Shown here: positions 1,897 through 22,619 of the stretch, piece by piece
How positions within the stretch are numbered: position 1 is the first letter of the stretch
How the letters are laid out: each line of letters starts with the position of its first letter
Assembly: GCA_002269645.1 (NCBI GenBank)
Contig: NIVC01000669.1
Coordinates: 1 to 64,000, forward strand
Length of the DNA: 64,000 nt
DNA from: Macrostomum lignano
Lineage: Eukaryota
Direction of reading: 5' to 3'
Translations under genes and position numbers: made by a program
The notes under the pieces: generated by a model
Told to the model about the DNA's origin: nothing
Database searches by the model: none
The model's input: only the letters and a program-made list of their open reading frames with translations

Positions 1897-1950
1897 CTGC
1901 GGGTTTTATGTAATCATCGTAATTAAAGCAGTCAGGGTGAAGTATACAGT

Positions 1951-2619
1951 CTACTGTGTATACCGTAAAAGCCATATGAAATAACTACGTGACAAAATTA
2001 GTCTTTTTAGCGCGTGGCAATATATGTGCAATGTCCAGTGAAACGCGTGATGGGCATGCAAAAATTGTCGTAGATGTCGTTCTATATCCAGGGGTAACAT
2101 ATGACGCAATATTCCTTGATTGTTATGTGCGTACAGTAGTAATTCATTGCGTGACCGTCGAGCGAAACGAGGTACTGGCCAAAACTCTAGCAACTGTTCG
2201 ATACGTATTGCGGGTAGTGTTCGAATATTATCAACATGTAAGCATCGATTGGCGTCGGGCTTGATGCGACACCACTTCTTGAAGGTGCTGTCCTTCGGCA
2301 TACTGTTACACATAGGGCATCCTATGATGCCCCTACTAGCGGTTCGTTTCAAGCATTGCATGCAAATAAAATGACTTTGATTACAGTATTGAAAGGTGCG
2401 CCACGAATAACAATAGGCGCACTGCGTCAGACTACTCCTACATAGGGGGCAGCTTTGCCAGTGTTGGATATGATGCGCGTCACACAAGCAAGTGCCGCAT
2501 ATGCGATGATTATTTATACAAATGGTTGGTGGTTTTTTATGCAGGTCATCTTCCAAACAGACAGGGCATTCATAGAGTTGCCGTGGCTGGGTCGCCAGTC
2601 TAGACTGTGCATTGCCCAT
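1951..2619 (-). CDS. Retroelement accessory ORF2, double RING-HC protein with N-myristoylation motif, 222 aa from first ATG (copy A)
   Basis: The track ORF starts at a GTG; the first ATG (2619) gives MGNAQS. CPVC-x12-CxxxH-x2-CxxC-x12-CPLC and CAYC-x8-CxxxH-x2-CxxC-x11-CPMC. Confidence 0.85.
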   Translation of the reverse strand: MGNAQSRLATQPRQLYECPVCLEDDLHKKPPTICINNHRICGTCLCDAHHIQHWQSCPLCRSSLTQCAYCYSWRTFQYCNQSHFICMQCLKRTASRGIIGCPMCNSMPKDSTFKKWCRIKPDANRCLHVDNIRTLPAIRIEQLLEFWPVPRFARRSRNELLLYAHNNQGILRHMLPLDIERHLRQFLHAHHAFHWTLHIYCHALKRLILSRSYFIWLLRYTQ

Positions 2620-2765
2620 AGTCGTTAGCCAAGCGTCAGTTGCGGTTATGTAGTCAATTGTAGAGTTCACTTGTGGAGTCGCTCGGATTAGTCGCCTCTT
2701 ACGACAAGCTTGCGAAGCTGTAGAGCTATTCTGACCCGGTCTCTACACGGGTTTGTTTTCGCAAC

Positions 2766-5700
2766 TTAACGAGGTCGCAGATTATAGCCGTGCGGCTGGC
2801 TCTCGTTCGTTGTTTGAGTCTCCTCGTGCTTCGTTGCGATGTGGCGGTTTGTCGAACGCGTGCGGTCGGCATTGTCAAGTGACGGTAGAAATGTCGCCGT
2901 GTCAGTGTTGATCCTTTTCAATCGATGAATGTGCACGTAGAATTGGTGCTGATGAGGATCTTGCACATTGGCCAGGCGTGCCGTTGTCGGTAACGTTAGT
3001 TGGACCACTCGATATGGTCCTTTGTACTTCTGTGCGTGTTTGTGCGTCTGTTGTGGCGGATAGTGCAGGTAGACGATGTCGCCGGCTGTCAGAGTTGTCG
3101 ATCTCGTGTCGGTGCCGGTGGTCAGAGCCACCTGATTGTCGATGTTGTGCTTGGCTACTTTCCATGCGAGGTGTAGTTGCGTGACGAACTTTTGAATGGA
3201 CGTCGGGACTTCCACATATTGCGATGGTAGTAGTTGCTGTGCCAATAGGTTTGGCGGCTGGAAGTCTCGCCCAAACATTAGAAAGAATGGCGTATTATCC
3301 GTTGATCGATGAATAGCGCTGTTGTAGGCCATTGTTACTGCTTGCAGATAGATGATCCAGTCGTCCGGTTGTTGATGCGCGAAGTGTGTAATCATCTCGT
3401 GTAGGTTGCGGTGAAACCTTTCAACCATGTTCGCCTTCGGATTGTAGGTCGATGTGTAGATCTGCGTGATGTTGAGGATCTTCACCACTTGCTGAAAGAG
3501 TTGAGACGTAAACTGCGATCCATTGTCCGATGTGAGGTTCTTTGGCGTACCGTACTTGCAGATGATGTCGTTGAAGAAACCCATTGCCACTGTCTGAGCT
3601 GTGATGTCCGGTATTGGTATGGCAATAGCAAACTTTGAGAAAATGTCCAAGGCTGTTAGGATGTAGGTGTAGGCTATGCCATGGAGACAGCTCGGTGGCA
3701 GCGGTCCGGTGATGTCGATGCTGAGACAGTCCATAGTCGTTGACTTCGGTATCGATTGTAGCTGTGGTTTTTGTCGTCGTCCTGTCTTTGATGCTGCGCA
3801 TGAGTGGCAGTTATTGCAATACTGCTTGATGTCGCCATGCATGCTTGGCCAAAAGTAGTATTGCTCCACTCTTGCAATGGTTTTGGCTGCCGACAGGTGT
3901 CCAGCGAGTGGGTTGTCGTGCAGCTCGTTGAGAATGGCCTGCCTAAACGAATATGGCATGTAGATTTTAGGTTTGTTGTCACTCATCCAGTAGAGTCGTG
4001 TCTTGTTGATTGTTAAATGTTGTCGCTGCTTGCGCAGGAATTTTCGTTCCACGGGGCTGAGCTTGATGTCCTTGTCGTTGTTTTTAACTGCTATGTAGAA
4101 GTTGTCGTGTTCAGTCTCATCCACCAATTCCTTGATGTTAGGGATTGGATGAATGGCGTTGACTTCGTAGGTTCTTGACAGAGCGTCCGCCGCCTTGTTA
4201 GTAATTCCTGGTTTGTAGACGAGCTTGTAGTTGTAGTCCTGGATCTTGAGTGTCATCCTGATGAGTCGGTTGTTTGTTTGTCCTTTTGTAGTTACGACGT
4301 AGGTCAGCGGTGCGTGATCTGTGCGTACTATCGTCGTATTGGAGAACCATAGATGTAGTAATGGAACTGTCGTAGGGCGAACAAGACTCCTAGTAGTTCT
4401 CGTTCCGTAGCGGACCATTTTGTCTCATTCGGTTTAAGTGCTCGACTGACGTAGGCTATAGGTCGTTCCTTTTTGTCTTCAGTTTCCTGTAGTAGGACTG
4501 CTCCGAGTCCCGTTCCTGAGGCGTCTGTCTCGATGATGAAGGGTTTGTCGAAGTCCGGATGCTGTAGCAGTGCGTCTGATGTCAGCTGTCGTTTGATTTC
4601 GTCAAAACTTTCTTGTTGCTTTTGTGTCCAATTATCCTGCTTCCATTTGTCGAACTTGAGCAGGTCGTACAGCGGCTTTGCTGTCTTCGCGAAGTTGGGT
4701 AAGAACTTTCGGAAGTATTGCGCTAGTCCAAGAAATGATTGGACCTTCGTTATGCTAGTTGGTGTAGGAAACTTCTTTACTTTCTCCACATTGTCTGGGT
4801 CCGGTGAGATTCCTTTGGCTGTCACTTGGTGTCCTAGGTAACGTACGTTGTCTCGGAAGAATTTGCATTTCGTCGGTTGTAGCTTAAGACCTTGGCGTTG
4901 AATGAGCGCTAGGGCCTTCTCCGTAGCTTCATAGAGTCGTTGGAAGTCTTCTCCGTAGGCCAAGATGTCGTCGACATAGTGCAGCAGGTTTGTGCATCCT
5001 GCAAGCATGTATGCCGTTAGTCGGCTCATTGTTGCTGGGCTGTTGCTGAGTCCCATTGGCGACCGGTTGTACTCGTAGACTTGTCCATTGTAGGTTTTGA
5101 AAGCCGTGTACTGTCGTGATTCTTTCTCGATTTCAATTTGCCAAAATCCATGACGTAGGTCGAACACCGTGAACAATTTTGCTGTGTTGAGCTTTGCTAG
5201 TAGCTCGGAGATCTTTGGTAGGCTTTGCTGATCCGTCGGTATGTACTTGTTCAGCAGTCTGAAGTCGCATACAAGTCGTCTTTCGTTAGTCTCCTTCTTT
5301 TGTACCAGTAGGCACGGTGAGGAATAGGCTGAAATTGCTTTGCTGATGATGCCGTGCTTTAGCATTTTATCGATAATTTCATCAAAGTGTTGTTGCAGAT
5401 GTTTGGCAATCGGGTACGGCTTGCATTGAATTGGTTCCGTGTGCGGTAGAAGCTTGATTTCTTGTTTAATGTCTTTAGCGCGTCCGATGTCGTAATCATG
5501 ATGGCAGAAGGCTTCGTTGTACTTCCACAACAGTTGTCGAACTTTCTTCTTTTGCTGTTCCGTGATCGGGCTGTCGTCCAAGTTGATTTTCTTTTGAAAT
5601 TCTTCTTCTGTTAGTCGTGGAGTCGTGTGCTCAATCAGCATAACTGATGCTTGAGTGTTGAGATGACCGATGCACATTCCTTGTCGTAGATGAACCATTT

Positions 5701-8700
5701 CCGCGTTCGGGTTGAAGATTTGTACTGGCAGCTGCTTATCTTTTGCCACCAGCACTAGTGCCGTAGGCATCATAATTTGGTGTTTAGCCGTGACTCTTCT
5801 GTTTGGGTCGAATATCATTGCTTCCTCCGTTGCGTTAGTTGCCTTTGCCTTTATCCAGCAGGCGCTCTCCGGTTGGATGATGACATCTTGTTGCAATGTT
5901 ACTTTTGGTAGTACTCGGATCTGGTTGATCAATGGTTGTTCTACCGAGTCGATCTTGAACGTTTGCTTATTGAAGTCGAAGGTCAATGGTAGTCGAAGCT
6001 GCTTGAACGTGTCGATGCCAACAATAACGTCCTGGTTTGGGAGTCTGTCGATGACGTACGTTGGAACTGTCAAATGTTTATTAGCGATTCTTAAATCAAT
6101 GTCGGCTTTTCCCAGAATGTTTAGCGAATGTCCTCCTGCTCCTGCAACTGCGATTGTTGCTGGCCGTAGAGCAAGTCGTAGCTTGTTGCACAGTTGTTTT
6201 GATATAACTGTAATGGAGCTGCCGGAGTCCAGTAACGCTCGACATGGTAGATTGTTGATTATAACTTGAGCCATTGCTTTGCCAATTTCGGCGTGTAGAG
6301 TACATACGTAGTTTTCTGGCCATTTTGGGTCTTGCTGTTCTGCTTGATAGTTAGGTGGTTGTATTCTTGGTGCCGTTGGTGTTGTCGGAATCGATGGATA
6401 TAGCCGCGTTGCTAGTGTCGGTTGCCCTTGAACCTCACGATGTGCAGTTTCTGTTAGTTCTAAACTGTTGTCGCCTTCCGTTGTCGTTCTTTGCATTATG
6501 GCATTCACTGTCTTCTTAGCTCTTGGACAAGTTTGACTGAAGCACCGTACGATTGACGAAATGATGAAGATTGCCGTGGCAATCCACACAATGCAAGCAC
6601 CGTAGAAGATGAATCCTTGATAGAGACTGCCTCTTCCATTGAGCAGCTCCCAGAAGCTGTTTGTCCAAAATGATTTGATGGCGCTGTCCATTGAAACAAG
6701 GACGGGAAATCTTCCTGTCCCGGTTCCTTTGTCCTTTCTTGTGAACAGCTGGTGAATCATCTTGCGTTGGGTGATGAACGCTTGCAAGAAGTCGTTGATC
6801 GTCCATCCTGGTGTTATTTCGTCAAGTTGGGTATCGGCGAATGGCCTATACTTTGTTCTGTTGAATCGGATTTTCAAATCCTCCATGTCGTAGTTTTCGT
6901 CGACGATTACTTCCGGTTCTGTGATGTTTGCTGTCGTTCCAGTTGTTTTGATGACGTGTAGTGCATTGTCCAGTTGATAGTAGTTCGCTGCCGTGGTGCA
7001 AGGTCTCGGTATTGCGGTGCCAACGATGATGTTGTGTACCGTGTCCAAGAATCCTTGAATTCGTTTTCCTTCGTAGAACGCTTCAATCCTTGGCTTGTCG
7101 TAGCAGGTTGTTGACGTGTTTGACGGCAAGATGTTGAAGTGCTGTATCGGCGTGCACTTGTATATCAACAGATGCTCGTATATTGGAACTGCCAAAACGT
7201 TCGTCATTCCGGTGATTTTACGAAAAGTCATCGTAGGGTTGACATAGTAGTTTTGTCTGGCATAATTTAAGTTGATTGCGTGCATTTTGCAAGTTAGCTG
7301 GACCAGTGTTCGATGCAAGTGGTTTAACTGGTTGTGTAGATTGTGATCCAAAGCCGTTATCTTTGCTGACAGTAGTCGGTTTGACACTAGTTTGGGACGT
7401 TCGATGTCTCGTCGTCGTCTGTTCTGTTGTTCCTGCTGTTGATACGTTCCGTTGATGATCGCCAGAAAGGTTTGTTTGTCGTCTTCTTTTACGTAGACTG
7501 GTATCTCTTGTTCCGAGATGAATAGTGTCTTGTCTGTATCCTTGCATTTCAGTTTTTGCTCGACTGGTTTCTTTTGAAACGTCAGTGCCAAGTCTCCTGA
7601 CTTTGCCAAAAACGTATTTGACAGTAGACCTCCTTCAACTGTGTGATACTTTTGAAGCTTGCAGTCAATTTCCGGCTCAACTTCCCACGCGAAGAAGTAT
7701 TGTCGTGACTTAGATGGTTCTTCATATCGTGAGTCGCCTCTGCGTATAATTTGCCATCGATAGTCTTGATGATATGTTGGACTCAACGGTAAGCTGTATA
7801 GTTCCTCATTCCGCAGTATCGGCGTTGGACACCATCCTTTGCTGTATCGGCAGTCGCTTAATTGCAGTTGTAGCGACTCCATTTTTTCAAAAGGATTGTG
7901 ATAGAATGGAATATTCCTGATTAGGTAACTGTTTCGTGTCATGTAGTTAGTCCATGCTTCCGAAAAGTGTACATATCGTCCGTTTGCTGAGTTCTTCGTT
8001 CGGTAAAGTTGTGCCTCCCCCACTTTCTCATCCGGTTCTAGCTGACCATCCTTTGAGAACAGTGTTTGGTTCCATTGTAGACATTCAGCGTGCGACACAT
8101 GTAGTTCGTGTTGCCAAAATCGAATTCTGTTCCACTGTCCTCGCCAAACTTTTTCCACTAGGTGCTTGTCTCTGAAGCACACTATTCCGTGTTGTCGATG
8201 CTTTTTGATGTTAGCCTTGTAGAGGTCGAGTGTAATCTTCTTTGGCTTCGTTTGGTTTGTCTTGAAGTAGCTGCATTTGATGTCGGTTGGTATCTTGTAG
8301 ATCATCGGTTGGATATGCGCATCCGTTGGACATATCATTGGTTTCTCCATTGCTGTTGCTTTGGTGACTACTGCCGTCAGTAGTATTATGATGATCCAGA
8401 ATATCCAGAATCGCCATTTTCTGAACGTTGCCGTTGTCTTTGCTGGCATTGGCTGCGGCTGCCATTCGTTATCTTCTGCGTCCGCATCGTATTCTTCCTC
8501 TTGTTCCATTGGCGTTTCCGAGCGCAAGGCATCCGATTCGTTCCGCTGCTTGTCGTCTTCATCATTTTCTTCCTTGCTTTCTTCCGATGTTGTAGTTGTG
8601 TCACTCCATTGTCTGCGGTACCTCACTTCGGCCTTGTAGTCGACCGTTTGAATGTAGGCTTCACCATTTCGTTTATATCGGATCTCGTAGCATTGATCGC

Positions 8701-10084
8701 TGTCGGAGCTTAGATTTCTTTCTTCCATTCCTTTGTGCCTTCCGTCTTCATGTGCTTTGTCGACGGCTTGGTTGTCATCAGCGTCATTGTGCATCTCATA
8801 ATCGTGATCGCTGCTTTCTTCTCGCTGTTCTTCTTCCATTTCTGCATTTCCGTCGTTGCTTATTTCGTTGTCATCCTTCGTTGCCAGTTCCTTGTCGTTG
8901 CCTTTGTTTGTTTCTTCTTTTCTTTCATTGATGTCGCTTGGCAATGTTTTTTCTGTGCTCACTTCTGCCTTTTCTTCTTCGCTGTCAATGTTAGTTTCTT
9001 TCATTTCGACCATGCTGATGTTTTTTGTCTTTTCGCTGCTCTCCGCATCGAGCCAGTCGATTTCATTGATAGTGAAGTCCATTTCTAAGTCGTCTATCGT
9101 GAAGACTTGCTGCTCTTGCTGTTCGCTTTCCGGTGTGTACGTGATGGCGTTTGCATATCGTTGCATCGCTTGCGTTGGTTGCTTGGGCATGTATCTGGCG
9201 TTTCGCGGTCTGTAGCCATTGTTTCCTAAGCGTTTCGTGTTTTGCTGCTGCCAATTTTGATGCTGTTGCCATGGTTTTTGCTGCTTCCGTCTGTTGAATG
9301 GCTGTCGCGGCATATCATTTCTTGTTGACCGATGAGGACAATGTATTTGGTAGTGTCCTTCTCGTCCACAGTAATAGCATCTGGCTTGGGCTCGTTCATT
9401 TCGTCTTTTTTGTTCGGCGATAACGGCTGTTTGATGTTGCATCAGCTTGTTTAGTTGCTGTGTCAGTTTCTGCACTTCTGTGTTGCCGGTTGTCATTAGT
9501 GGAGCGCTTGCTTCCCACTGCATTCCGCACCGTAAAAGGTCTTCCTCGGTTTCAATGTTTTCGCGCAAAAGTCTATCCCGCAGTGACGGCTGTGCATTGT
9601 TTATTACGTGCAGGATGAGGTTTTGTTCACGGTCCATCAATCGTTGTCGCTCTCTTGCGGCTAACTCCGCTGCGCCTGGAGGTGGCTGATCCGCCGCTGG
9701 CAGCGTTGGCTGATGCAGTGCCTTAATTATTTGACGTATATCGTCCACGAAGGTCAGGAAGGATTCTGTTGGCTGCATCCGTCTGTTATGCAACTTGTGC
9801 AGTAGCACTGACCTGTTTGTGCCACAGCGGTTGAAGTGTGCGCGCAGTTGAATGATTAATGCTGGGTAGTTTTGCTGTGTTGCCGCGTCTAGTTTACCAT
9901 AAATCTCTCGTGCGGTGCCTTGGAGGAGTGGTGGCAACAGTTGCGCTTTTTCTGGATTTTGTAGGTTGTATTCCCTACATACCAGGTCAAAATGATCAAC
10001 AAAGGTGTTAAAGTCTTTTTCCATAGAAAAGGTGCCAACTGTCTCTTTGATATCTCTGTGCACCGTTGGATTGCGCCGCGCCAT
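2766..10084 (-). pseudogene. Gag-Env-Pol polyprotein, copy A, split by a 1-nt deletion at ~4336 in RNase H (real lesion or consensus error)
   Basis: 1918-aa ORF (4328-10084) plus 550-aa ORF (2766-4418) equal the 2439-aa ORF of copy B. Plus strand tcgtcgtattgg here versus tcgtcggtattgg in copy B. Confidence 0.9.
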
Positions 10085-10767
10085 GTTGTTGATGGGATAG
10101 AACGGTAGCTCTAGGTCTGGGTCGATTTGTAATGGATCTTCCAGTGTGGTGTTTCTTTCGAAATAAACTTCGGTTGTAACTGATTGTCTCGCGGCGCTTT
10201 TGACACCTCAATTTGTTATGTCTGACCTTGAGCGGAATTCGGCTTTTGGCTGCTTTTTCTGACCTCTTATTCGCTGGCTGATTTTCGCACTTATGCGGCG
10301 TCCCGCAAAGTGTATCTTTAAAGTGCTTGAAGTGCAGCTGCTTCTTGCTTTTTTCAAAGGCCTTTCTTGTCTTCGTGACGTGCCTTGTCACGTTTTATCA
10401 AATTTCGGTTTGTTTTAGCTTTCGTCAAGTGTTTTTAATTTCGGTTTTGTTTTAGTGTGTATTGATTATTTTTCGGTTTGTTTTCAGTGTACCGGACGTT
10501 GTTTTCGGTTTTGTTTAAGGTTTACTCTTGCTCGAGCTCGTTAAAAACAAAAATTTAACACGCGTGCTCAAACGTTACTCAAAATTGACAGGTACTCAAG
10601 CCTGTATATCGAAACTTTTACTCGCGTTTCAAATCGTAAAAAAATCGAAAAGTGTCGAAAAATTTTACCTCTAACACGTGCGCGCAAAATTAATGAAGTC
10701 GCTCTTTCGTCACGTTACAATAGCTTGATCAGGGCTATTGCTCAAAGTTTGAGTAGTGCCGAGAGGG

Positions 10768-10778
10768 CGAGATCACCA
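10768..10778 (-). other. Primer-binding site, copy A (TGGTGATCTCG; tentatively tRNA-Trp); copy B at 21555-21565
   Basis: TGG start 2 nt after the LTR end CA. Pairs with the metazoan tRNA-Trp 3' end (CGGGGUCACCA) over 11 nt with two G:U wobbles. tRNA identity is uncertain. Confidence 0.65.
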
Positions 10779-10780
10779 AT

Positions 10781-11832
10781 TGATGTGTTCCTTATTACCA
10801 GTCCTCAGCTGTAATCAAGGAACAATCACTTCTAGCTCTGTAGCTAGGCAACCCAGTAATCAAATGAAGGTATGTATTACCTTGAGTCCTGTCTCTGAGA
10901 GCTCTTCCGTGTTCTGTTATTCTCGGACTTCCTTTGAACCTCGAACTTCGTTAGACGTCTATGTTCGTAACCAGGTCCGCGTTCCTTTACGTCCACTGAA
11001 GTCGTTTCCGGCCGGTATCTGTAGTGCGGACCAATGGGAAGCTTCCAAATCAACAATGGGTACCCTGCGCCAATCTGCGGTTTAATATAAGCCTACTCCT
11101 TCTAGCAGTGCCTCCATGCACTCTAGGTATAGCTCCGGAAACCACTGATAGTCTTCTAAGATCTATCAGGGGCAGTCCTTCTGGAGACTGCAACCAGCAG
11201 AGTCTAAACAGACTCAGGAGTCTCAACAGACTCAAATAAACTCAAGTCTCAATAGACTTGAGCGAGACGTCTCAACCAACAGGCGCAAATGAGTAAGGCT
11301 TACCGCAAGAACTCGTCCACGACGCGAGTTTCTTCAGGAAGGCTTCGCTAGAGCTTCCTCTTCGGAGCTTCTCTCTCTTGGAGATTTCTTGGCTCCGGGT
11401 CCGTTCCGGACCACTTGTATTTATAGGCGTTCAGACCTCTCTCGAGGTCGTACATCACTGTCTTCGCAAATGTCAAAGGGTCACGATTCGGTGGCTGTCA
11501 AGCATGACAGGGTAGAAAGTTGCGCAACTAGTCTACTGTAAAAGCGCATGATTGGTTACCGTAGCTGGTAGACTTTGATTGGTTCATCCGGGTGCAACCC
11601 GAGTGCAAACCAAATGATGACTTGAAGGTGGGGTTTGAATTGACAGTTGTTGGTCGCACGTGATTGGGTGATTTCTAAAATTAGCATGCTCGAGATTTCT
11701 CTCTTTCTATTGGTTAATTCGAATATATGTATGGTTCAGCGCATATCCTTATACATGCTCCTCAAATTACTACTATTTAAGTAGTACGTTAACAATTTTA
11801 AATAACTTTTCTGGGAGATATAATACTCTACA
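10781..11832 (-). repeat. Shared middle LTR (5' LTR of copy A = 3' LTR of copy B), 1052 bp
   Basis: Flanked by the PBS on the left and the PPT on the right. TG...CA termini (left edge could be 10784). No differences from 21568-22619 seen by eye. Confidence 0.95.
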
Positions 11833-12043
11833 AAATCTCCCTTTTTTACGAAAAAACTCGTCCCGAGTTTGAATAAAAATATAAATTTACAGAAACGTCT
11901 TGAACTTGATATTGTATATATTTATATTGCCGGTATGTTACATTGTATACATTATCAGTAGTTAGTTTTGTCAGAGTTAATGGAAAGTTATCGTCTGATA
12001 AATGCAGATGACACTTGCCCCTGTGTTGATGCCGCTCGGACGA

Positions 12044-12682
12044 TCAGCCGAACCCGATTTTGAGCACGGCGGATATCTGCTGCGCTGTTCGCGCAGCCAG
12101 ACATGCCACCGCCCAGAATGTCGGCTGAAAGCGTGTGAAGCGCGGTTCCTCTGTGCGCTCGAGTATCATCAGGTAGGCGTCAATACTCGTGAGTCCTGGG
12201 TGCTCGCGAGCCAGGCTCCTGGAAATTCCAAGGACGTGACGCCATGACTCCTGATGCCGGTGCGGCCACGGCCACGACCGGACGGCGATGGACAATTGCT
12301 CGAAGGTCAAGCTGTCCGGCTCCGCCAACGTCAACTCTGGCACTGGTGTTATTGTCGCCAACATCAGCGCCGTCGAATGGTTGACAGGAGCTAGACATTC
12401 GGTGCAGATCTCTATATCTCTTGCACCGTACCTTCGGAGACAGCTTGCACAGACCCAATGTCGGTTGGAACACACCTGAACATGGGGCTGTTCGCCGCAT
12501 ACCACACAGGTAGCCCGCGCGCGACGGCAGACCGGGCAGGTAGATAGCATGGTAACATTGCCATCCACCTGCTGCGCCATGGCGTCGCAGGAGACACACA
12601 CGCGGTGTCCCCACTCACACGTCGGGATCATATAGTCCCGCGTCTCGAGACAGCAGGGGCATACGTCGTTGTTCTCGGCCAT
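12044..12682 (-). CDS. Retroelement accessory ORF3, double RING-HC protein (copy B)
   Basis: Translation identical to 1258-1896. Confidence 0.85.
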   Translation of the reverse strand: MAENNDVCPCCLETRDYMIPTCEWGHRVCVSCDAMAQQVDGNVTMLSTCPVCRRARATCVVCGEQPHVQVCSNRHWVCASCLRRYGARDIEICTECLAPVNHSTALMLATITPVPELTLAEPDSLTFEQLSIAVRSWPWPHRHQESWRHVLGISRSLAREHPGLTSIDAYLMILERTEEPRFTRFQPTFWAVACLAARTAQQISAVLKIGFG

Positions 12683-12736: not shown

Positions 12737-13405
12737 CTACTGTGTATACCGTAAAAGCCATATGAAATAACTACGTGACAAAATTAGTCTTTTTAGCGCG
12801 TGGCAATATATGTGCAATGTCCAGTGAAACGCGTGATGGGCATGCAAAAATTGTCGTAGATGTCGTTCTATATCCAGGGGTAACATATGACGCAATATTC
12901 CTTGATTGTTATGTGCGTACAGTAGTAATTCATTGCGTGACCGTCGAGCGAAACGAGGTACTGGCCAAAACTCTAGCAACTGTTCGATACGTATTGCGGG
13001 TAGTGTTCGAATATTATCAACATGTAAGCATCGATTGGCGTCGGGCTTGATGCGACACCACTTCTTGAAGGTGCTGTCCTTCGGCATACTGTTACACATA
13101 GGGCATCCTATGATGCCCCTACTAGCGGTTCGTTTCAAGCATTGCATGCAAATAAAATGACTTTGATTACAGTATTGAAAGGTGCGCCACGAATAACAAT
13201 AGGCGCACTGCGTCAGACTACTCCTACATAGGGGGCAGCTTTGCCAGTGTTGGATATGATGCGCGTCACACAAGCAAGTGCCGCATATGCGATGATTATT
13301 TATACAAATGGTTGGTGGTTTTTTATGCAGGTCATCTTCCAAACAGACAGGGCATTCATAGAGTTGCCGTGGCTGGGTCGCCAGTCTAGACTGTGCATTG
13401 CCCAT
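12737..13405 (-). CDS. Retroelement accessory ORF2, myristoylation motif plus double RING-HC (copy B)
   Basis: Translation identical to copy A; ATG at 13405 gives MGNAQS. Confidence 0.85.
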   Translation of the reverse strand: MGNAQSRLATQPRQLYECPVCLEDDLHKKPPTICINNHRICGTCLCDAHHIQHWQSCPLCRSSLTQCAYCYSWRTFQYCNQSHFICMQCLKRTASRGIIGCPMCNSMPKDSTFKKWCRIKPDANRCLHVDNIRTLPAIRIEQLLEFWPVPRFARRSRNELLLYAHNNQGILRHMLPLDIERHLRQFLHAHHAFHWTLHIYCHALKRLILSRSYFIWLLRYTQ

Positions 13406-13551
13406 AGTCGTTAGCCAAGCGTCAGTTGCGGTTATGTAGTCAATTGTAGAGTTCACTTGTGGAGTCGCTCGGATTAGTCGCCTCTTACGACAAGCTTGCG
13501 AAGCTGTAGAGCTATTCTGACCCGGTCTCTACACGGGTTTGTTTTCGCAAC

Positions 13552-16500
13552 TTAACGAGGTCGCAGATTATAGCCGTGCGGCTGGCTCTCGTTCGTTGTT
13601 TGAGTCTCCTCGTGCTTCGTTGCGATGTGGCGGTTTGTCGAACGCGTGCGGTCGGCATTGTCAAGTGACGGTAGAAATGTCGCCGTGTCAGTGTTGATCC
13701 TTTTCAATCGATGAATGTGCACGTAGAATTGGTGCTGATGAGGATCTTGCACATTGGCCAGGCGTGCCGTTGTCGGTAACGTTAGTTGGACCACTCGATA
13801 TGGTCCTTTGTACTTCTGTGCGTGTTTGTGCGTCTGTTGTGGCGGATAGTGCAGGTAGACGATGTCGCCGGCTGTCAGAGTTGTCGATCTCGTGTCGGTG
13901 CCGGTGGTCAGAGCCACCTGATTGTCGATGTTGTGCTTGGCTACTTTCCATGCGAGGTGTAGTTGCGTGACGAACTTTTGAATGGACGTCGGGACTTCCA
14001 CATATTGCGATGGTAGTAGTTGCTGTGCCAATAGGTTTGGCGGCTGGAAGTCTCGCCCAAACATTAGAAAGAATGGCGTATTATCCGTTGATCGATGAAT
14101 AGCGCTGTTGTAGGCCATTGTTACTGCTTGCAGATAGATGATCCAGTCGTCCGGTTGTTGATGCGCGAAGTGTGTAATCATCTCGTGTAGGTTGCGGTGA
14201 AACCTTTCAACCATGTTCGCCTTCGGATTGTAGGTCGATGTGTAGATCTGCGTGATGTTGAGGATCTTCACCACTTGCTGAAAGAGTTGAGACGTAAACT
14301 GCGATCCATTGTCCGATGTGAGGTTCTTTGGCGTACCGTACTTGCAGATGATGTCGTTGAAGAAACCCATTGCCACTGTCTGAGCTGTGATGTCCGGTAT
14401 TGGTATGGCAATAGCAAACTTTGAGAAAATGTCCAAGGCTGTTAGGATGTAGGTGTAGGCTATGCCATGGAGACAGCTCGGTGGCAGCGGTCCGGTGATG
14501 TCGATGCTGAGACAGTCCATAGTCGTTGACTTCGGTATCGATTGTAGCTGTGGTTTTTGTCGTCGTCCTGTCTTTGATGCTGCGCATGAGTGGCAGTTAT
14601 TGCAATACTGCTTGATGTCGCCATGCATGCTTGGCCAAAAGTAGTATTGCTCCACTCTTGCAATGGTTTTGGCTGCCGACAGGTGTCCAGCGAGTGGGTT
14701 GTCGTGCAGCTCGTTGAGAATGGCCTGCCTAAACGAATATGGCATGTAGATTTTAGGTTTGTTGTCACTCATCCAGTAGAGTCGTGTCTTGTTGATTGTT
14801 AAATGTTGTCGCTGCTTGCGCAGGAATTTTCGTTCCACGGGGCTGAGCTTGATGTCCTTGTCGTTGTTTTTAACTGCTATGTAGAAGTTGTCGTGTTCAG
14901 TCTCATCCACCAATTCCTTGATGTTAGGGATTGGATGAATGGCGTTGACTTCGTAGGTTCTTGACAGAGATACCGCCGCCTTGTTAGTAATTCCTGGTTT
15001 GTAGACGAGCTTGTAGTTGTAGTCCTGGATCTTGAGTGTCATCCTGATGAGTCGGTTGTTTGTTTGTCCTTTTGTAGTTACGACGTAGGTCAGCGGTGCG
15101 TGATCTGTGCGTACTATCGTCGGTATTGGAGAACCATAGATGTAGTAATGGAACTGTCGTAGGGCGAACAAGACTCCTAGTAGTTCTCGTTCCGTAGCGG
15201 ACCATTTTGTCTCATTCGGTTTAAGTGCTCGACTGACGTAGGCTATAGGTCGTTCCTTTTTGTCTTCAGTTTCCTGTAGTAGGACTGCTCCGAGTCCCGT
15301 TCCTGAGGCGTCTGTCTCGATGATGAAGGGTTTGTCGAAGTCCGGATGCTGTAGCAGTGCGTCTGATGTCAGCTGTCGTTTGATTTCGTCAAAACTTTCT
15401 TGTTGCTTTTGTGTCCAATTATCCTGCTTCCATTTGTCGAACTTGAGCAGGTCGTACAGCGGCTTTGCTGTCTTCGCGAAGTTGGGTAAGAACTTTCGGA
15501 AGTATTGCGCTAGTCCAAGAAATGATTGGACCTTCGTTATGCTAGTTGGTGTAGGAAACTTCTTTACTTTCTCCACATTGTCTGGGTCCGGTGAGATTCC
15601 TTTGGCTGTCACTTGGTGTCCTAGGTAACGTACGTTGTCTCGGAAGAATTTGCATTTCGTCGGTTGTAGCTTAAGACCTTGGCGTTGAATGAGCGCTAGG
15701 GCCTTCTCCGTAGCTTCATAGAGTCGTTGGAAGTCTTCTCCGTAGGCCAAGATGTCGTCGACATAGTGCAGCAGGTTTGTGCATCCTGCAAGCATGTATG
15801 CCGTTAGTCGGCTCATTGTTGCTGGGCTGTTGCTGAGTCCCATTGGCGACCGGTTGTACTCGTAGACTTGTCCATTGTAGGTTTTGAAAGCCGTGTACTG
15901 TCGTGATTCTTTCTCGATTTCAATTTGCCAAAATCCATGACGTAGGTCGAACACCGTGAACAATTTTGCTGTGTTGAGCTTTGCTAGTAGCTCGGAGATC
16001 TTTGGTAGGCTTTGCTGATCCGTCGGTATGTACTTGTTCAGCAGTCTGAAGTCGCATACAAGTCGTCTTTCGTTAGTCTCCTTCTTTTGTACCAGTAGGC
16101 ACGGTGAGGAATAGGCTGAAATTGCTTTGCTGATGATGCCGTGCTTTAGCATTTTATCGATAATTTCATCAAAGTGTTGTTGCAGATGTTTGGCAATCGG
16201 GTACGGCTTGCATTGAATTGGTTCCGTGTGCGGTAGAAGCTTGATTTCTTGTTTAATGTCTTTAGCGCGTCCGATGTCGTAATCATGATGGCAGAAGGCT
16301 TCGTTGTACTTCCACAACAGTTGTCGAACTTTCTTCTTTTGCTGTTCCGTGATCGGGCTGTCGTCCAAGTTGATTTTCTTTTGAAATTCTTCTTCTGTTA
16401 GTCGTGGAGTCGTGTGCTCAATCAGCATAACTGATGCTTGAGTGTTGAGATGACCGATGCACATTCCTTGTCGTAGATGAACCATTTCCGCGTTCGGGTT

Positions 16501-19500
16501 GAAGATTTGTACTGGCAGCTGCTTATCTTTTGCCACCAGCACTAGTGCCGTAGGCATCATAATTTGGTGTTTAGCCGTGACTCTTCTGTTTGGGTCGAAT
16601 ATCATTGCTTCCTCCGTTGCGTTAGTTGCCTTTGCCTTTATCCAGCAGGCGCTCTCCGGTTGGATGATGACATCTTGTTGCAATGTTACTTTTGGTAGTA
16701 CTCGGATCTGGTTGATCAATGGTTGTTCTACCGAGTCGATCTTGAACGTTTGCTTATTGAAGTCGAAGGTCAATGGTAGTCGAAGCTGCTTGAACGTGTC
16801 GATGCCAACAATAACGTCCTGGTTTGGGAGTCTGTCGATGACGTACGTTGGAACTGTCAAATGTTTATTAGCGATTCTTAAATCAATGTCGGCTTTTCCC
16901 AGAATGTTTAGCGAATGTCCTCCTGCTCCTGCAACTGCGATTGTTGCTGGCCGTAGAGCAAGTCGTAGCTTGTTGCACAGTTGTTTTGATATAACTGTAA
17001 TGGAGCTGCCGGAGTCCAGTAACGCTCGACATGGTAGATTGTTGATTATAACTTGAGCCATTGCTTTGCCAATTTCGGCGTGTAGAGTACATACGTAGTT
17101 TTCTGGCCATTTTGGGTCTTGCTGTTCTGCTTGATAGTTAGGTGGTTGTATTCTTGGTGCCGTTGGTGTTGTCGGAATCGATGGATATAGCCGCGTTGCT
17201 AGTGTCGGTTGCCCTTGAACCTCACGATGTGCAGTTTCTGTTAGTTCTAAACTGTTGTCGCCTTCCGTTGTCGTTCTTTGCATTATGGCATTCACTGTCT
17301 TCTTAGCTCTTGGACAAGTTTGACTGAAGCACCGTACGATTGACGAAATGATGAAGATTGCCGTGGCAATCCACACAATGCAAGCACCGTAGAAGATGAA
17401 TCCTTGATAGAGACTGCCTCTTCCATTGAGCAGCTCCCAGAAGCTGTTTGTCCAAAATGATTTGATGGCGCTGTCCATTGAAACAAGGACGGGAAATCTT
17501 CCTGTCCCGGTTCCTTTGTCCTTTCTTGTGAACAGCTGGTGAATCATCTTGCGTTGGGTGATGAACGCTTGCAAGAAGTCGTTGATCGTCCATCCTGGTG
17601 TTATTTCGTCAAGTTGGATATCGGCGAATGGCCTATACTTTGTTCTGTTGAATCGGATTTTCAAATCCTCCATGTCGTAGTTTTCGTCGACGATTACTTC
17701 CGGTTCTGTGATGTTTGCTGTCGTTCCAGTTGTTTTGATGACGTGTAGTGCATTGTCCAGTTGATAGTAGTTCGCTGCCGTGGTGCAAGGTCTCGGTATT
17801 GCGGTGCCAACGATGATGTTGTGTACCGTGTCCAAGAATCCCTGAATTCGTTTTCCTTCGTAGAACGCTTCAATCCTTGGCTTGTCGTAGCAGGTTGTTG
17901 ACGTGTTTGACGGCAAGATGTTGAAGTGCTGTATCGGCGTGCACTTGTATATCAACAGATGCTCGTATATTGGAACTGCCAAAACGTTCGTCATTCCGGT
18001 GATTTTACGAAAAGTCATCGTAGGGTTGACATAGTAGTTTTGTCTGGCATAATTTAAGTTGATTGCGTGCATTTTGCAAGTTAGCTGGACCAGTGTTCGA
18101 TGCAAGTGGTTTAACTGGTTGTGTAGATTGTGATCCAAAGCCGTTATCTTTGCTGACAGTAGTCGGTTTGACACTAGTTTGGGACGTTCGATGTCTCGTC
18201 GTCGTCTGTTCTGTTGTTCCTGCTGTTGATACGTTCCGTTGATGATCGCCAGAAAGGTTTGTTTGTCGTCTTCTTTTACGTAGACTGGTATCTCTTGTTC
18301 CGAGATGAATAGTGTCTTGTCTGTATCCTTGCATTTCAGTTTTTGCTCGACTGGTTTCTTTTGAAACGTCAGTGCCAAGTCTCCTGACTTTGCCAAAAAC
18401 GTATTTGACAGTAGACCTCCTTCAACTGTGTGATACTTTTGAAGCTTGCAGTCAATTTCCGGCTCAACTTCCCACGCGAAGAAGTATTGTCGTGACTTAG
18501 ATGGTTCTTCATATCGTGAGTCGCCTCTGCGTATAATTTGCCATCGATAGTCTTGATGATATGTTGGACTCAACGGTAAGCTGTATAGTTCCTCATTCCG
18601 CAGTATCGGCGTTGGACACCATCCTTTGCTGTATCGGCAGTCGCTTAATTGCAGTTGTAGCGACTCCATTTTTTCAAAAGGATTGTGGTAGAATGGAATA
18701 TTCCTGATTAGGTAACTGTTTCGTGTCATGTAGTTAGTCCATGCTTCCGAAAAGTGTACATATCGTCCGTTTGCTGAGTTCTTCGTTCGGTAAAGTTGTG
18801 CCTCCCCCACTTTCTCATCCGGTTCTAGCTGACCATCCTTTGAGAACAGTGTTTGGTTCCATTGTAGACATTCAGCGTGCGACACATGTAGTTCGTGTTG
18901 CCAAAATCGAATTCTGTTCCACTGTCCTCGCCAAACTTTTTCCACTAGGTGCTTGTCTCTGAAGCACACTATTCCGTGTTGTCGATGCTTTTTGATGTTA
19001 GCCTTGTAGAGGTCGAGTGTAATCTTCTTTGGCTTCGTTTGGTTTGTCTTGAAGTAGCTGCATTTGATGTCGGTTGGTATCTTGTAGATCATCGGTTGGA
19101 TATGCGCATCCGTTGGACATATCATTGGTTTCTCCATTGCTGTTGCTTTGGTGACTACTGCCGTCAGTAGTATTATGATGATCCAGAATATCCAGAATCG
19201 CCATTTTCTGAACGTTGCCGTTGTCTTTGCTGGCATTGGCTGCGGCTGCCATTCGTTATCTTCTGCGTCCGCATCGTATTCTTCCTCTTGTTCCATTGGC
19301 GTTTCCGAGCGCAAGGCATCCGATTCGTTCCGCTGCTTGTCGTCTTCATCATTTTCTTCCTTGCTTTCTTCCGATGTTGTAGTTGTGTCACTCCATTGTC
19401 TGCGGTACCTCACTTCGGCCTTGTAGTCGACCGTTTGAATGTAGGCTTCACCATTTCGTTTATATCGGATCTCGTAGCATTGATCGCTGTCGGAGCTTAG

Positions 19501-20871
19501 ATTTCTTTCTTCCATTCCTTTGTGCCTTCCGTCTTCATGTGCTTTGTCGACGGCTTGGTTGTCATCAGCGTCATTGTGCATCTCATAATCGTGATCGCTG
19601 CTTTCTTCTCGCTGTTCTTCTTCCATTTCTGCATTTCCGTCGTTGCTTATTTCGTTGTCATCCTTCGTTGCCAGTTCCTTGTCGTTGCCTTTGTTTGTTT
19701 CTTCTTTTCTTTCATTGATGTCGCTTGGCAATGTTTTTTCTGTGCTCACTTCTGCCTTTTCTTCTTCGCTGTCAATGTTAGTTTCTTTCATTTCGACCAT
19801 GCTGATGTTTTTTGTCTTTTCGCTGCTCTCCGCATCGAGCCAGTCGATTTCATTGATAGTGAAGTCCATTTCTAAGTCGTCTATCGTGAAGACTTGCTGC
19901 TCTTGCTGTTCGCTTTCCGGTGTGTACGTGATGGCGTTTGCATATCGTTGCATCGCTTGCGTTGGTTGCTTGGGCATGTATCTGGCGTTTCGCGGTCTGT
20001 AGCCATTGTTTCCTAAGCGTTTCGTGTTTTGCTGCTGCCAATTTTGATGCTGTTGCCATGGTTTTTGCTGCTTCCGTCTGTTGAATGGCTGTCGCGGCAT
20101 ATCATTTCTTGTTGACCGATGAGGACAATGTATTTGGTAGTGTCCTTCTCGTCCACAGTAATAGCATCTGGCTTGGGCTCGTTCATTTCGTCTTTTTTGT
20201 TCGGCGATAACGGCTGTTTGATGTTGCATCAGCTTGTTTAGTTGCTGTGTCAGTTTCTGCACTTCTGTGTTGCCGGTTGTCATTAGTGGAGCGCTTGCTT
20301 CCCACTGCATTCCGCACCGTAAAAGGTCTTCCTCGGTTTCAATGTTTTCGCGCAAAAGTCTATCCCGCAGTGACGGCTGTGCATTGTTTATTACGTGCAG
20401 GATGAGGTTTTGTTCACGGTCCATCAATCGTTGTCGCTCTCTTGCGGCTAACTCCGCTGCGCCTGGAGGTGGCTGATCCGCCGCTGGCAGCGTTGGCTGA
20501 TGCAGTGCCTTAATTATTTGACGTATATCGTCCACGAAGGTCAGGAAGGATTCTGTTGGCTGCATCCGTCTGTTATGCAACTTGTGCAGTAGCACTGACC
20601 TGTTTGTGCCACAGCGGTTGAAGTGTGCGCGCAGTTGAATGATTAATGCTGGGTAGTTTTGCTGTGTTGCCGCGTCTAGTTTACCATAAATCTCTCGTGC
20701 GGTGCCTTGGAGGAGTGGTGGCAACAGTTGCGCTTTTTCTGGATTTTGTAGGTTGTATTCCCTACATACCAGGTCAAAATGATCAACAAAGGTGTTAAAG
20801 TCTTTTTCCATAGAAAAGGTGCCAACTGTCTCTTTGATATCTCTGTGCACCGTTGGATTGCGCCGCGCCAT
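13552..20871 (-). CDS. Single-ORF Gag-Env-PR-RT-RNaseH-IN polyprotein, 2439 aa (copy B)
   Basis: Capsid-like N terminus; CYYCGREGHYQIHC knuckle aa236-249; LLDSGS protease D1286; RT YVDD aa1703-1706; RNase H IIETDASG D1854; integrase HHCC, DDE (SIDITGP/TSDNGSQF/VERFHR) and GPY; C-terminal YNLRPR. No stop or frameshift. Confidence 0.97.
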   Translation of the reverse strand: MARRNPTVHRDIKETVGTFSMEKDFNTFVDHFDLVCREYNLQNPEKAQLLPPLLQGTAREIYGKLDAATQQNYPALIIQLRAHFNRCGTNRSVLLHKLHNRRMQPTESFLTFVDDIRQIIKALHQPTLPAADQPPPGAAELAARERQRLMDREQNLILHVINNAQPSLRDRLLRENIETEEDLLRCGMQWEASAPLMTTGNTEVQKLTQQLNKLMQHQTAVIAEQKRRNERAQARCYYCGREGHYQIHCPHRSTRNDMPRQPFNRRKQQKPWQQHQNWQQQNTKRLGNNGYRPRNARYMPKQPTQAMQRYANAITYTPESEQQEQQVFTIDDLEMDFTINEIDWLDAESSEKTKNISMVEMKETNIDSEEEKAEVSTEKTLPSDINERKEETNKGNDKELATKDDNEISNDGNAEMEEEQREESSDHDYEMHNDADDNQAVDKAHEDGRHKGMEERNLSSDSDQCYEIRYKRNGEAYIQTVDYKAEVRYRRQWSDTTTTSEESKEENDEDDKQRNESDALRSETPMEQEEEYDADAEDNEWQPQPMPAKTTATFRKWRFWIFWIIIILLTAVVTKATAMEKPMICPTDAHIQPMIYKIPTDIKCSYFKTNQTKPKKITLDLYKANIKKHRQHGIVCFRDKHLVEKVWRGQWNRIRFWQHELHVSHAECLQWNQTLFSKDGQLEPDEKVGEAQLYRTKNSANGRYVHFSEAWTNYMTRNSYLIRNIPFYHNPFEKMESLQLQLSDCRYSKGWCPTPILRNEELYSLPLSPTYHQDYRWQIIRRGDSRYEEPSKSRQYFFAWEVEPEIDCKLQKYHTVEGGLLSNTFLAKSGDLALTFQKKPVEQKLKCKDTDKTLFISEQEIPVYVKEDDKQTFLAIINGTYQQQEQQNRRRRDIERPKLVSNRLLSAKITALDHNLHNQLNHLHRTLVQLTCKMHAINLNYARQNYYVNPTMTFRKITGMTNVLAVPIYEHLLIYKCTPIQHFNILPSNTSTTCYDKPRIEAFYEGKRIQGFLDTVHNIIVGTAIPRPCTTAANYYQLDNALHVIKTTGTTANITEPEVIVDENYDMEDLKIRFNRTKYRPFADIQLDEITPGWTINDFLQAFITQRKMIHQLFTRKDKGTGTGRFPVLVSMDSAIKSFWTNSFWELLNGRGSLYQGFIFYGACIVWIATAIFIISSIVRCFSQTCPRAKKTVNAIMQRTTTEGDNSLELTETAHREVQGQPTLATRLYPSIPTTPTAPRIQPPNYQAEQQDPKWPENYVCTLHAEIGKAMAQVIINNLPCRALLDSGSSITVISKQLCNKLRLALRPATIAVAGAGGHSLNILGKADIDLRIANKHLTVPTYVIDRLPNQDVIVGIDTFKQLRLPLTFDFNKQTFKIDSVEQPLINQIRVLPKVTLQQDVIIQPESACWIKAKATNATEEAMIFDPNRRVTAKHQIMMPTALVLVAKDKQLPVQIFNPNAEMVHLRQGMCIGHLNTQASVMLIEHTTPRLTEEEFQKKINLDDSPITEQQKKKVRQLLWKYNEAFCHHDYDIGRAKDIKQEIKLLPHTEPIQCKPYPIAKHLQQHFDEIIDKMLKHGIISKAISAYSSPCLLVQKKETNERRLVCDFRLLNKYIPTDQQSLPKISELLAKLNTAKLFTVFDLRHGFWQIEIEKESRQYTAFKTYNGQVYEYNRSPMGLSNSPATMSRLTAYMLAGCTNLLHYVDDILAYGEDFQRLYEATEKALALIQRQGLKLQPTKCKFFRDNVRYLGHQVTAKGISPDPDNVEKVKKFPTPTSITKVQSFLGLAQYFRKFLPNFAKTAKPLYDLLKFDKWKQDNWTQKQQESFDEIKRQLTSDALLQHPDFDKPFIIETDASGTGLGAVLLQETEDKKERPIAYVSRALKPNETKWSATERELLGVLFALRQFHYYIYGSPIPTIVRTDHAPLTYVVTTKGQTNNRLIRMTLKIQDYNYKLVYKPGITNKAAVSLSRTYEVNAIHPIPNIKELVDETEHDNFYIAVKNNDKDIKLSPVERKFLRKQRQHLTINKTRLYWMSDNKPKIYMPYSFRQAILNELHDNPLAGHLSAAKTIARVEQYYFWPSMHGDIKQYCNNCHSCAASKTGRRQKPQLQSIPKSTTMDCLSIDITGPLPPSCLHGIAYTYILTALDIFSKFAIAIPIPDITAQTVAMGFFNDIICKYGTPKNLTSDNGSQFTSQLFQQVVKILNITQIYTSTYNPKANMVERFHRNLHEMITHFAHQQPDDWIIYLQAVTMAYNSAIHRSTDNTPFFLMFGRDFQPPNLLAQQLLPSQYVEVPTSIQKFVTQLHLAWKVAKHNIDNQVALTTGTDTRSTTLTAGDIVYLHYPPQQTHKHAQKYKGPYRVVQLTLPTTARLANVQDPHQHQFYVHIHRLKRINTDTATFLPSLDNADRTRSTNRHIATKHEETQTTNESQPHGYNLRPR
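17335..19212 (-). other. Envelope-like type I glycoprotein domain inside the polyprotein (aa554-1179; copy A 6548-8425), gB/chuvirus-like class III fusogen candidate
   Basis: Internal signal FRKWRFWIFWIIIILLTAVVTKATA, Cys-rich ectodomain with N-glycosylation sequons (NQT, NGT, NTS, NIT, NRT), furin site RRRR (aa889-892), long helix ending in C...NP...G...A...C-x-P-I as in gB domain III/IV, TM FIFYGACIVWIATAIFIISSIV. Confidence 0.8.
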
Positions 20872-21567
20872 GTTGTTGATGGGATAGAACGGTAGCTCTA
20901 GGTCTGGGTCGATTTGTAATGGATCTTCCAGTGTGGTGTTTCTTTCGAAATAAACTTCGGTTGTAACTGATTGTCTCGCGGCGCTTTTGACACCTCAATT
21001 TGTTATGTCTGACCTTGAGCGGAATTCGGCTTTTGGCTGCTTTTTCTGACCTCTTATTCGCTGGCTGATTTTCGCACTTATGCGGCGTCCCGCAAAGTGT
21101 ATCTTTAAAGTGCTTGAAGTGCAGCTGCTTCTTGCTTTTTTCAAAGGCCTTTCTTGTCTTCGTGACGTGCCTTGTCACGTTTTATCAAATTTCGGTTTGT
21201 TTTAGCTTTCGTCAAGTGTTTTTAATTTCGGTTTTTTTTTAGTGTGTATTGATTATTTTTCGGTTTGTTTTCAGTGTACCGGACGTTGTTTTCGGTTTTG
21301 TTTAAGGTTTACTCTTGCTCGAGCTCGTTAAAAACAAAAATTTAACACGCGTGCTCAAACGTTACTCAAAATTGACAGGTACTCAAGCCTGTATATCGAA
21401 ACTTTTACTCGCGTTTCAAATCGTAAAAAAATCGAAAAGTGTCGAAAAATTTTACCTCTAACACGTGCGCGCAAAATTAATGAAGTCGCTCTTTCGTCAC
21501 GTTACAATAGCTTGATCAGGGCTATTGCTCAAAGTTTGAGTAGTGCCGAGAGGGCGAGATCACCAAT

Positions 21568-22619
21568 TGATGTGTTCCTTATTACCAGTCCTCAGCTGTA
21601 ATCAAGGAACAATCACTTCTAGCTCTGTAGCTAGGCAACCCAGTAATCAAATGAAGGTATGTATTACCTTGAGTCCTGTCTCTGAGAGCTCTTCCGTGTT
21701 CTGTTATTCTCGGACTTCCTTTGAACCTCGAACTTCGTTAGACGTCTATGTTCGTAACCAGGTCCGCGTTCCTTTACGTCCACTGAAGTCGTTTCCGGCC
21801 GGTATCTGTAGTGCGGACCAATGGGAAGCTTCCAAATCAACAATGGGTACCCTGCGCCAATCTGCGGTTTAATATAAGCCTACTCCTTCTAGCAGTGCCT
21901 CCATGCACTCTAGGTATAGCTCCGGAAACCACTGATAGTCTTCTAAGATCTATCAGGGGCAGTCCTTCTGGAGACTGCAACCAGCAGAGTCTAAACAGAC
22001 TCAGGAGTCTCAACAGACTCAAATAAACTCAAGTCTCAATAGACTTGAGCGAGACGTCTCAACCAACAGGCGCAAATGAGTAAGGCTTACCGCAAGAACT
22101 CGTCCACGACGCGAGTTTCTTCAGGAAGGCTTCGCTAGAGCTTCCTCTTCGGAGCTTCTCTCTCTTGGAGATTTCTTGGCTCCGGGTCCGTTCCGGACCA
22201 CTTGTATTTATAGGCGTTCAGACCTCTCTCGAGGTCGTACATCACTGTCTTCGCAAATGTCAAAGGGTCACGATTCGGTGGCTGTCAAGCATGACAGGGT
22301 AGAAAGTTGCGCAACTAGTCTACTGTAAAAGCGCATGATTGGTTACCGTAGCTGGTAGACTTTGATTGGTTCATCCGGGTGCAACCCGAGTGCAAACCAA
22401 ATGATGACTTGAAGGTGGGGTTTGAATTGACAGTTGTTGGTCGCACGTGATTGGGTGATTTCTAAAATTAGCATGCTCGAGATTTCTCTCTTTCTATTGG
22501 TTAATTCGAATATATGTATGGTTCAGCGCATATCCTTATACATGCTCCTCAAATTACTACTATTTAAGTAGTACGTTAACAATTTTAAATAACTTTTCTG
22601 GGAGATATAATACTCTACA
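21568..22619 (-). repeat. 5' LTR of copy B, 1052 bp; right end of the array
   Basis: Similarity to the other LTRs stops after ...TACTCTACA; host flank begins aacacggg. Confidence 0.95.

Follow-up and report, generated by a model that had tools for sequence, protein, structure and literature searches.

Accessory genes that counter host defences are a hallmark of complex vertebrate retroviruses. In invertebrates, the closest described relatives of the element considered here are the GAG-ENV-POL errantiviruses, which have the same gene order, a class III-like Env, a Ty3/gypsy pol and a 12-nt primer-binding site (PBS) (PMC13524379). Chary and Hayashi (PMC13524379) reported elements with an HSV/gB-type ENV from Platyhelminthes, Bryozoa and Nematoda, and they list one from Macrostomum lignano, Platyhelminthes_Rhabditophora_Mlig_errantivirus_2, whose PBS is identical to that of the present element, although its LTRs measure 864 nt as against 1052 nt. 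GAG, ENV and POL are the only genes annotated in that paper; the word RING occurs nowhere in its main text and seven supplements, and the term late domain is absent from the text as available. Extra genes that lie between pol and the 3' LTR or are spliced, like the cassette described below, are known as ORF3s in rotifers (PMC5408684), as aORFs in plants (PMC7264820) and as CERV in Cer1 (PMC10309623). Unlike that cassette, they encode exonucleases, esterases, SMC/transposase-28-like proteins or an RNA-export factor. In the available text of the rotifer and plant papers the word RING does not appear, and the corresponding passages of the Cer1 paper concern ring-shaped structures. The supplements of a Macrostomum study (PMC12801592) contain the word 150 times in an expression table, in which the two rows examined are transcript annotations. 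Within the literature searched (subscription papers, Repbase and Dfam lay outside its scope) we found no account of any LTR element with a RING accessory gene; the RING cassette of this element type appears to be new, and the kind of carrier is known.

The window analysed is the whole stretch of 64,000 nt from M. lignano contig NIVC01000669.1, and all features of the element lie on its minus strand. The element forms a tandem LTR-internal-LTR-internal-LTR array with 99.9% identity between copies. The 5' LTR of the first copy (21568-22619, TG...CA) contains a TATA box at 22212, a splice donor after 22091, an internal acceptor before 21805 and a candidate second donor at 21668. It is followed by the PBS (21554-21565), which equals the 12-nt PBS given for the published flatworm errantivirus, and by a single ORF of 2439 aa (13552-20871) that encodes Gag, Env, protease, reverse transcriptase (RT), RNase H and integrase. 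Gag carries a CCHC knuckle. An internal signal/anchor segment (19138-19197) marks the joint between Gag and the class III fusogen-like Env ectodomain (17335-19137), which has an RRRR cleavage site (18196-18207) and a transmembrane helix (17335-17403). A polypurine tract (PPT; 11836-11847) precedes the middle LTR (10781-11832), which is common to both tandem copies and 100% identical to the 5' LTR. The second copy (1-10780), whose LTR runs past the start of the window, carries ORF-A (1951-2619) and ORF-B (1258-1896) identical to those of the first copy, and a single break interrupts its polyprotein frame where RNase H and integrase are encoded. By its LTRs, PBS, PPT and PR-RT-RH-IN order, the carrier is an env-carrying Ty3/gypsy element (errantivirus), a type already published. 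For Env, the matches are weak (Pfam Monjiviricetes_fusion, E=1.5e-5, below the Pfam cut-off; Atlas lead 0.89; no match among PDB sequences); together with the signal, the RRRR site and the transmembrane helix, they are consistent with a gB-type (class III)-like protein.

The gene behind pol, ORF-A, had been noticed in a preliminary description at 12737-13405. The plus strand is closed over this interval; the frame reads on the minus strand from an ATG at 13405 to a stop ending at 12737, and it encodes 222 aa beginning MGNAQS. We regard it as almost certainly a real accessory gene. Its ATG, in the context ACT-ATG-G, is the first after the pol stop, the 146-nt gap between them holding none. An in-frame upstream GTG, which the preliminary description had named as an alternative start, was rejected because it is not conserved among sister subfamilies; the open frame upstream of the ATG extends over 41 codons here and over 4-15 in most of these. 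The protein consists of an N-terminal MGNAQSR motif (13385-13405), RING1 (13223-13354), RING2 (13094-13207) and a helical C-terminal domain (12740-13093). The two C3HC4 RINGs claimed earlier are borne out: units of the form C-x2-C...C-x3-H-x2-C-x2-C...C-x2-C occupy residues 18-60 and 67-104, with six residues between them. Across 16 paralogues and orthologues of 20-80% identity, picked to represent families, the putative zinc ligands fill 16 columns, of which 15 do not vary at all and the last is kept at ≥90%; R61 and W147-P148 are also invariant or nearly so. In the larger set of 20 sequences, all eight zinc ligands stand in RING spacing in RING1 of every member and in RING2 of 19. AlphaFold gives a confident model (pLDDT 86.9, pTM 0.79) in which residues 1-12 are disordered. 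In Pfam, ORF-A itself stays below the RING cut-offs (Sina_RING, E=0.011, 16.4 bits against a cut-off of 29.3), and some paralogues pass the Sina_RING cut-off with 30-33 bits.

The N-terminal motif predicts N-myristoylation. The pattern M-G-[not charged/aromatic/P]-x-x-[STAC] seldom arises by chance: among 483 other ORFs of at least 100 aa that begin with ATG in the analysed DNA, a set that includes many redundant copies and excludes ORFs starting MGNA, none shows it. It would be used without a polybasic or Cys second signal, residues 2-20 containing one or two basic residues. If ORF-A is translated, its Gly2 is likely to be myristoylated. The protein has no transmembrane helix (top 19-residue hydropathy 0.77), and in the transmembrane sense the membrane E3 of the preliminary description fails. 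MARCH/K3-type ligases have transmembrane helices and a RING-CH domain; ORF-A has neither, and its ligands follow the C3HC4 order. Closer in layout are RNF125 and ZNRF1, myristoylated cellular RING E3s. Like ORF-A they combine a Gly2 motif with a RING and lack a transmembrane helix, and they appear among its generic RING matches; unlike ORF-A they have a single RING, and they share no homology with it beyond that one domain.

Expression of ORF-A probably involves splicing. A conserved non-coding block after the pol stop (approximately 13480-13536) contains the last YAG before ORF-A, with its AG ending at 13504, as a candidate acceptor, and ACAG|CT is present there in 10 of 10 rows. The block, about 65 nt long, is conserved even between families whose ORF-A proteins are 38% identical; short inverted repeats occur in it, their loops varying, and besides any use as a splice acceptor it may serve as an RNA element. 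In 8 of 15 rows CAG abuts the ATG of the downstream paralogues (ORF-B/C); in 3 more, two bases separate them. On the donor side, TATA is followed by GCG|GTAAGC with no ATG between them in 41 LTRs of near subfamilies, and the donor pattern is absent from the LTRs of distant families. A contig from sequencing run X5 departs from the LTR exactly at this donor and joins 29 of 29 letters behind the TACAG acceptor of a sister subfamily, a splice that stays within the LTR and comes from one contig of one run. This contig demonstrates use of the LTR donor, and a separate subgenomic mRNA for each gene, reaching from that donor to an acceptor before each ATG, would be expected. Such splicing is also suggested by a UniRef protein (P0004) in which LTR-encoded ...RLGRVVA runs straight into the start of an ORF-B; as a jumbled gene model, with a second LTR exon that could not be located, it is no proof of a transcript. 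Among the 15 of 21 joints and 24 of 163 loose ends listed, none led into the ORF-A acceptor or into either RING ORF; the four runs compared are contigs, which are unable to rank expression, and no run found to carry the sequence is on record as RNA. With cis-splicing from the LTR donor, ORF-A starts at Met-Gly. The host spliced leader ends in ATG (PMC8629364), and a leader start that extends the N-terminus was also considered and rejected: a leader joined at 13504 lies 98 nt from the ORF-A ATG and its ATG is out of frame, so that it would not extend the protein.

The next ORF is a paralogue, a relation that the preliminary description missed. ORF-B (12044-12682; 212 aa) has the same double RING and helical domain, shares 28% identity with ORF-A (E=5e-13), starts MAENN without a myristoylation motif and has CAG directly upstream of its ATG. 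Sister elements at about 81% RT identity carry two or three such RING genes behind pol. In the genome, 150 of 237 candidates were scored and all of them matched, in families at about 100, 93, 69-80, 42 and 38%. The best outside match, a UniRef protein labelled Macrostomum lignano, agrees with the second RING gene of a sister subfamily at 99% over 202 residues. A search of 1.84 billion proteins yielded 190 matches, and most of the best 150 listed cover a single RING. Outside homologues from short contigs include three of full length (P0005-P0007), one with both RINGs (P0008) and one with the end of RING2 and the helical domain (P0025). A word-index homologue search with the alignment found none among 611 candidates, and one with P0005 found only itself among 48; no loci around the outside homologues were found in metagenome or viral contigs. 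For ORF-A, dN/dS is 0.07-0.21 in 7 of 8 pairs of more than 45% identity, the remaining pair being saturated; for ORF-B/C it is 0.14-0.22 in 4 of 6 pairs, the others again being saturated. At the level of sequence, these comparisons demonstrate coding genes that are under purifying selection and linked to the element.

The cassette also seems to be exchanged between elements and is often degraded. Among 115 RT matches, 43 are 96-100% identical over the full query, yet their cassettes differ. In the C1470 element, RT protein is 99% and ORF-A 74% identical to those of the window; in DNA, pol is 85-94% and the cassette 66-74% identical, with an ORF-A dS of about 2. This pattern suggests exchange of the cassette by recombination and fits an accessory module that moves fast. 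The genome rows include 17 whole, stop-free copies of the motif-bearing type, as against 44 of 150 of truncated types; 24 of these contain stops and break off near residue 163, and 20 are cut short by a stop at residue 90. The products of truncated examples measure 124-144 aa or 81-89 aa or are reduced to a 70-aa remnant whose RING1 is broken, and ORF-B is missing; some of the elements concerned keep open polyprotein frames of 2480-2538 codons. The most numerous subfamilies have a degenerate 70-aa ORF-A without ORF-B or an ORF-A of 124-144 aa. Because the Macrostomum assembly may be redundant (PMC12801592) and whole copies may help in trans, these data show ORF-A to be dispensable in cis only. 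A deletion derivative (L041:2925-7474; G000:C301 and similar contigs), in which gag is fused to the integrase tail in a 1031-codon frame, has both RING genes whole, the second with seven matches at 100%. Contigs G000:C87, C1130, C2121, C272 and C4009 (L087-L089, L022, L031) hold same-strand scrambled element pieces with several RING alleles and resemble silencing clusters or recombination graveyards.

RING1 bears the features expected of a ligase. RING E3s present to the E2 a hydrophobic residue in the first C-x-x-C, a proline in the last loop and an arginine after the last cysteine, and the latter two mark active ligases. On the E2 face of RING1 these positions are V20, P58 and R61; Pro and Arg are kept in 20 of 20 sequences, and RING1, which in ORF-A closes with C-P-L-C-R, ends C-P-x-C-R in all of them, four homologues from other data sets included. 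RING2 has all eight ligands, but an Arg follows its last Cys in 0 of 19 sequences. Because the Arg is kept in RING1 and absent in RING2, what is known of RING-E2 contacts points to RING1 as the working, E2-binding RING and RING2 as its structural partner. The best PDB sequence match of the profile is SIAH1 (E=1.6e-5), almost all of the 60 PDB matches listed are RING E3s, and model residues 16-65 superimpose on E3 RINGs with an rmsd of 1.8-2.5 Å over 46-51 residues (Z 5.0-5.3). Several RING E2-face positions deviate. At the helix position where E3 RINGs often carry Trp or Leu, ORF-A has Ala or Ser, and in ORF-B of the window family the usual C-x-I/V-C of E3s is replaced by C-P-C-C. A complex prediction of ORF-A (residues 13-222) with a host UBE2D-like E2 scored 0.15 against a mark of 0.34; as it was run without alignments or controls, it is evidence neither way. 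Of the two parts that the preliminary description proposed to compare, the RINGs match those of E3s and the C-terminal domain has no clear match. Folded alone, that domain is all helical (pLDDT 86.6) with an invariant W-P, and fold searches reached at best Z 6.8 over a helical bundle, with none at Z≥8 or E≤0.001; the absence of a clear match does not make the fold new. It is a candidate for the substrate-binding part.

Among cellular proteins, Sina/Siah E3s and host RING/B-box TRIM-like proteins share the C-x3-H spacing and the C-P-x-C-R end with ORF-A. ORF-A differs in its two RINGs and its helical domain, and by Pfam it has no B-box, no coiled coil and none of the zinc fingers and beta-sandwich substrate-binding domain that follow the RING in Sina/Siah. 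Scored with the cassette profile, all five host TRIM-like and Siah RINGs compared reach similar values (24-28 bits), and either kind may have supplied the captured host RING. A host array of genes encoding a RING and a B-box-like domain with the same C-x3-H spacing (L083-L085; G000:C210) provides candidate donors or opponents of the cassette. Several RING E3s of large DNA viruses degrade host defence proteins. Those of this group that were compared (ICP0, baculovirus PE38, nimavirus wsv222, iridovirus and giant-virus proteins) gave weak RING-only matches (Atlas 0.80-0.86), with none at E≤0.001 and no shared C-terminal domain, and they differ from ORF-A in that its carrier is a retroelement.

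Arenavirus Z, to which the preliminary description had likened ORF-A, is a myristoylated protein that combines a single central RING with late domains in 90-99 aa (PMC3509680). ORF-A resembles it in the N-terminal Gly motif, as read from the sequence, and in the RING fold. A Z-like matrix protein, a myristoylated RING that lines the envelope, drives budding and replaces the Gag matrix domain, would suit a Gag that starts MARR and, as had been stated, has no myristoylation signal; the G-N-A-x-S-K/R motif is kept in four subfamilies at near saturation of silent sites, the Z RING is among the structural matches (Foldseek rank 30; Z 3.9-4.0, where cellular E3 RINGs reach 5.0-5.3 at best, all of these matches being generic), and Z binds the glycoprotein signal peptide through its myristate (PMC3509680). 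Nevertheless, we consider this role quite improbable. ORF-A has two RINGs in 222 aa. The Gly motif occurs in 4 of 8 ORF-A sequences, 0 of 8 ORF-B/C sequences and 0 of 4 outside homologues (4 of 20 in total). The four that bear it form one clade (support 1.0; FastTree, midpoint-rooted, no clade test) nested among motif-less sequences, a position that makes a later gain of the motif probable. The orthologous proteins of sister elements begin MA(N/K)xFEC or MDC though their Gag likewise starts MARR. P[ST]AP, PPxY and YPx(1-3)L are found in 0 of 8 ORF-A sequences, and truncated copies abound. Late-domain-like motifs lie instead in the Env tail, upstream of the protease (LYPSI, PTAP and PPNY, 17134-17190); of the 13 Env tails found in related elements, all have YPx[IL], 11 have P[ST]AP and 7 have PPxY. 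This set includes two elements at 41-42% RT identity, which share the YP motif, PSAP being present in one of them; two further distant elements yielded no tail. With Gag, Env and Pol in one frame, Gag would stay on the Env signal segment and Pol on the Env tail, and Gag would on the predicted topology be held at the membrane by that segment. Barring splicing, a single frame would also yield the three products in equal amounts. Anchoring of Gag by the Env signal segment, together with ESCRT-type motifs in the tail, suggests that budding without a matrix protein is possible for GAG-ENV-POL elements. Hence, of the two likenesses drawn in the preliminary description, the RING/E3 one is favoured by the SIAH1 match, the superposition at about 2 Å and the E2-facing residues, and the matrix or Z one is not borne out.

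In our preferred reading, ORF-A would be a dispensable accessory RING E3 or E3 mimic directed at the host, to which we give about an even chance. A captured host RING would have been duplicated into a double-RING paralogue cassette and exchanged between element lineages. RING1 would recruit a host E2 with RING2 as its structural partner, and the helical domain would select a substrate, a host factor that limits the element and would be ubiquitinated. One lineage would have gained the myristoyl signal, with ORF-A directed to membranes and ORF-B soluble; lacking a second signal, myristate would probably target membranes weakly. The gene would aid the element, while copying in cis would work without it. 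The cassette shows purifying and not positive selection; an arms race would have been supported by positive selection but need not show it. The fuller version, in which an invertebrate endogenous retrovirus lineage has two or three spliced and swapped double-RING ligases of its own, one retargeted by myristoylation, that destroy host restriction or silencing factors, is put forward tentatively, and we hold it somewhat doubtful.

RINGs without ligase activity exist, and ORF-A may be a catalytically silent decoy that mimics host RINGs of the Siah or RING/B-box TRIM-like kind and inhibits a host ligase or an E2 through pairing, without transfer of ubiquitin. The equal scores of these host RINGs, the missing Arg of RING2 and the deviating E2-face positions would fit, but retention of the RING1 Arg and Pro in all 20 sequences at 20-40% identity is more easily explained by catalysis, and we find a decoy rather unlikely. 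A protein that regulates the element's own cycle, by ubiquitinating or binding Gag or the Env tail (ESCRT entry, turnover) or by exporting unspliced RNA, has a precedent in CERV, the spliced Cys-rich accessory protein of Cer1 (PMC10309623), and a membrane-bound ligase near the ESCRT-type motifs of the Env tail would make sense. Against it, the most numerous subfamilies have a degenerate or short ORF-A, some with open polyprotein frames (trans help being possible), and its supposed targets, the element's own proteins, are much less variable than the cassette; such a role seems unlikely. That ORF-A and ORF-B are a selfish toxin-antidote pair, or copies kept by the host in silencing clusters, is very improbable: the genes occur in pairs or triplets, several identical copies of the gag-integrase-tail derivative have both genes intact and several contigs have same-strand scrambled cassettes, but the partners are paralogues of one fold and many elements have lost ORF-B and most of ORF-A. 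Frequent truncation or loss would also be expected of a functionless host RING fragment carried as a neutral passenger, a reading made hardly credible by dN/dS of 0.07-0.22, by ligands conserved down to 20% identity and by full-length homologues in other data sets.

If the host-directed E3 reading is correct, an accessory role of complex retroviruses would be performed by a RING that the element itself encodes, where those viruses borrow a ligase from the host. A conserved and amplified RING cassette would point to host factors that restrain elements in flatworms, its substrate being part of that defence. Macrostomum is a transgenic model (PMC12801592), which makes the question testable.

The 3' slot occupied by the cassette holds unrelated ORFs of 259-361 codons in distant elements at 38-42% RT identity (L066:4796-5596, L068:4600-5685, L069:6446-7225), with no Pfam match above cut-off. 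In one sister element, a tyrosine-recombinase element, DIRS-like by eye, lies between pol and the RING cassette (L031:5313-9952, L032:1-2671). Elsewhere in the window, positions 30000-64000 contain many minisatellite-like tandem arrays and a 2.1-kb duplication (32043-35911), which give rise to long spurious ORFs.
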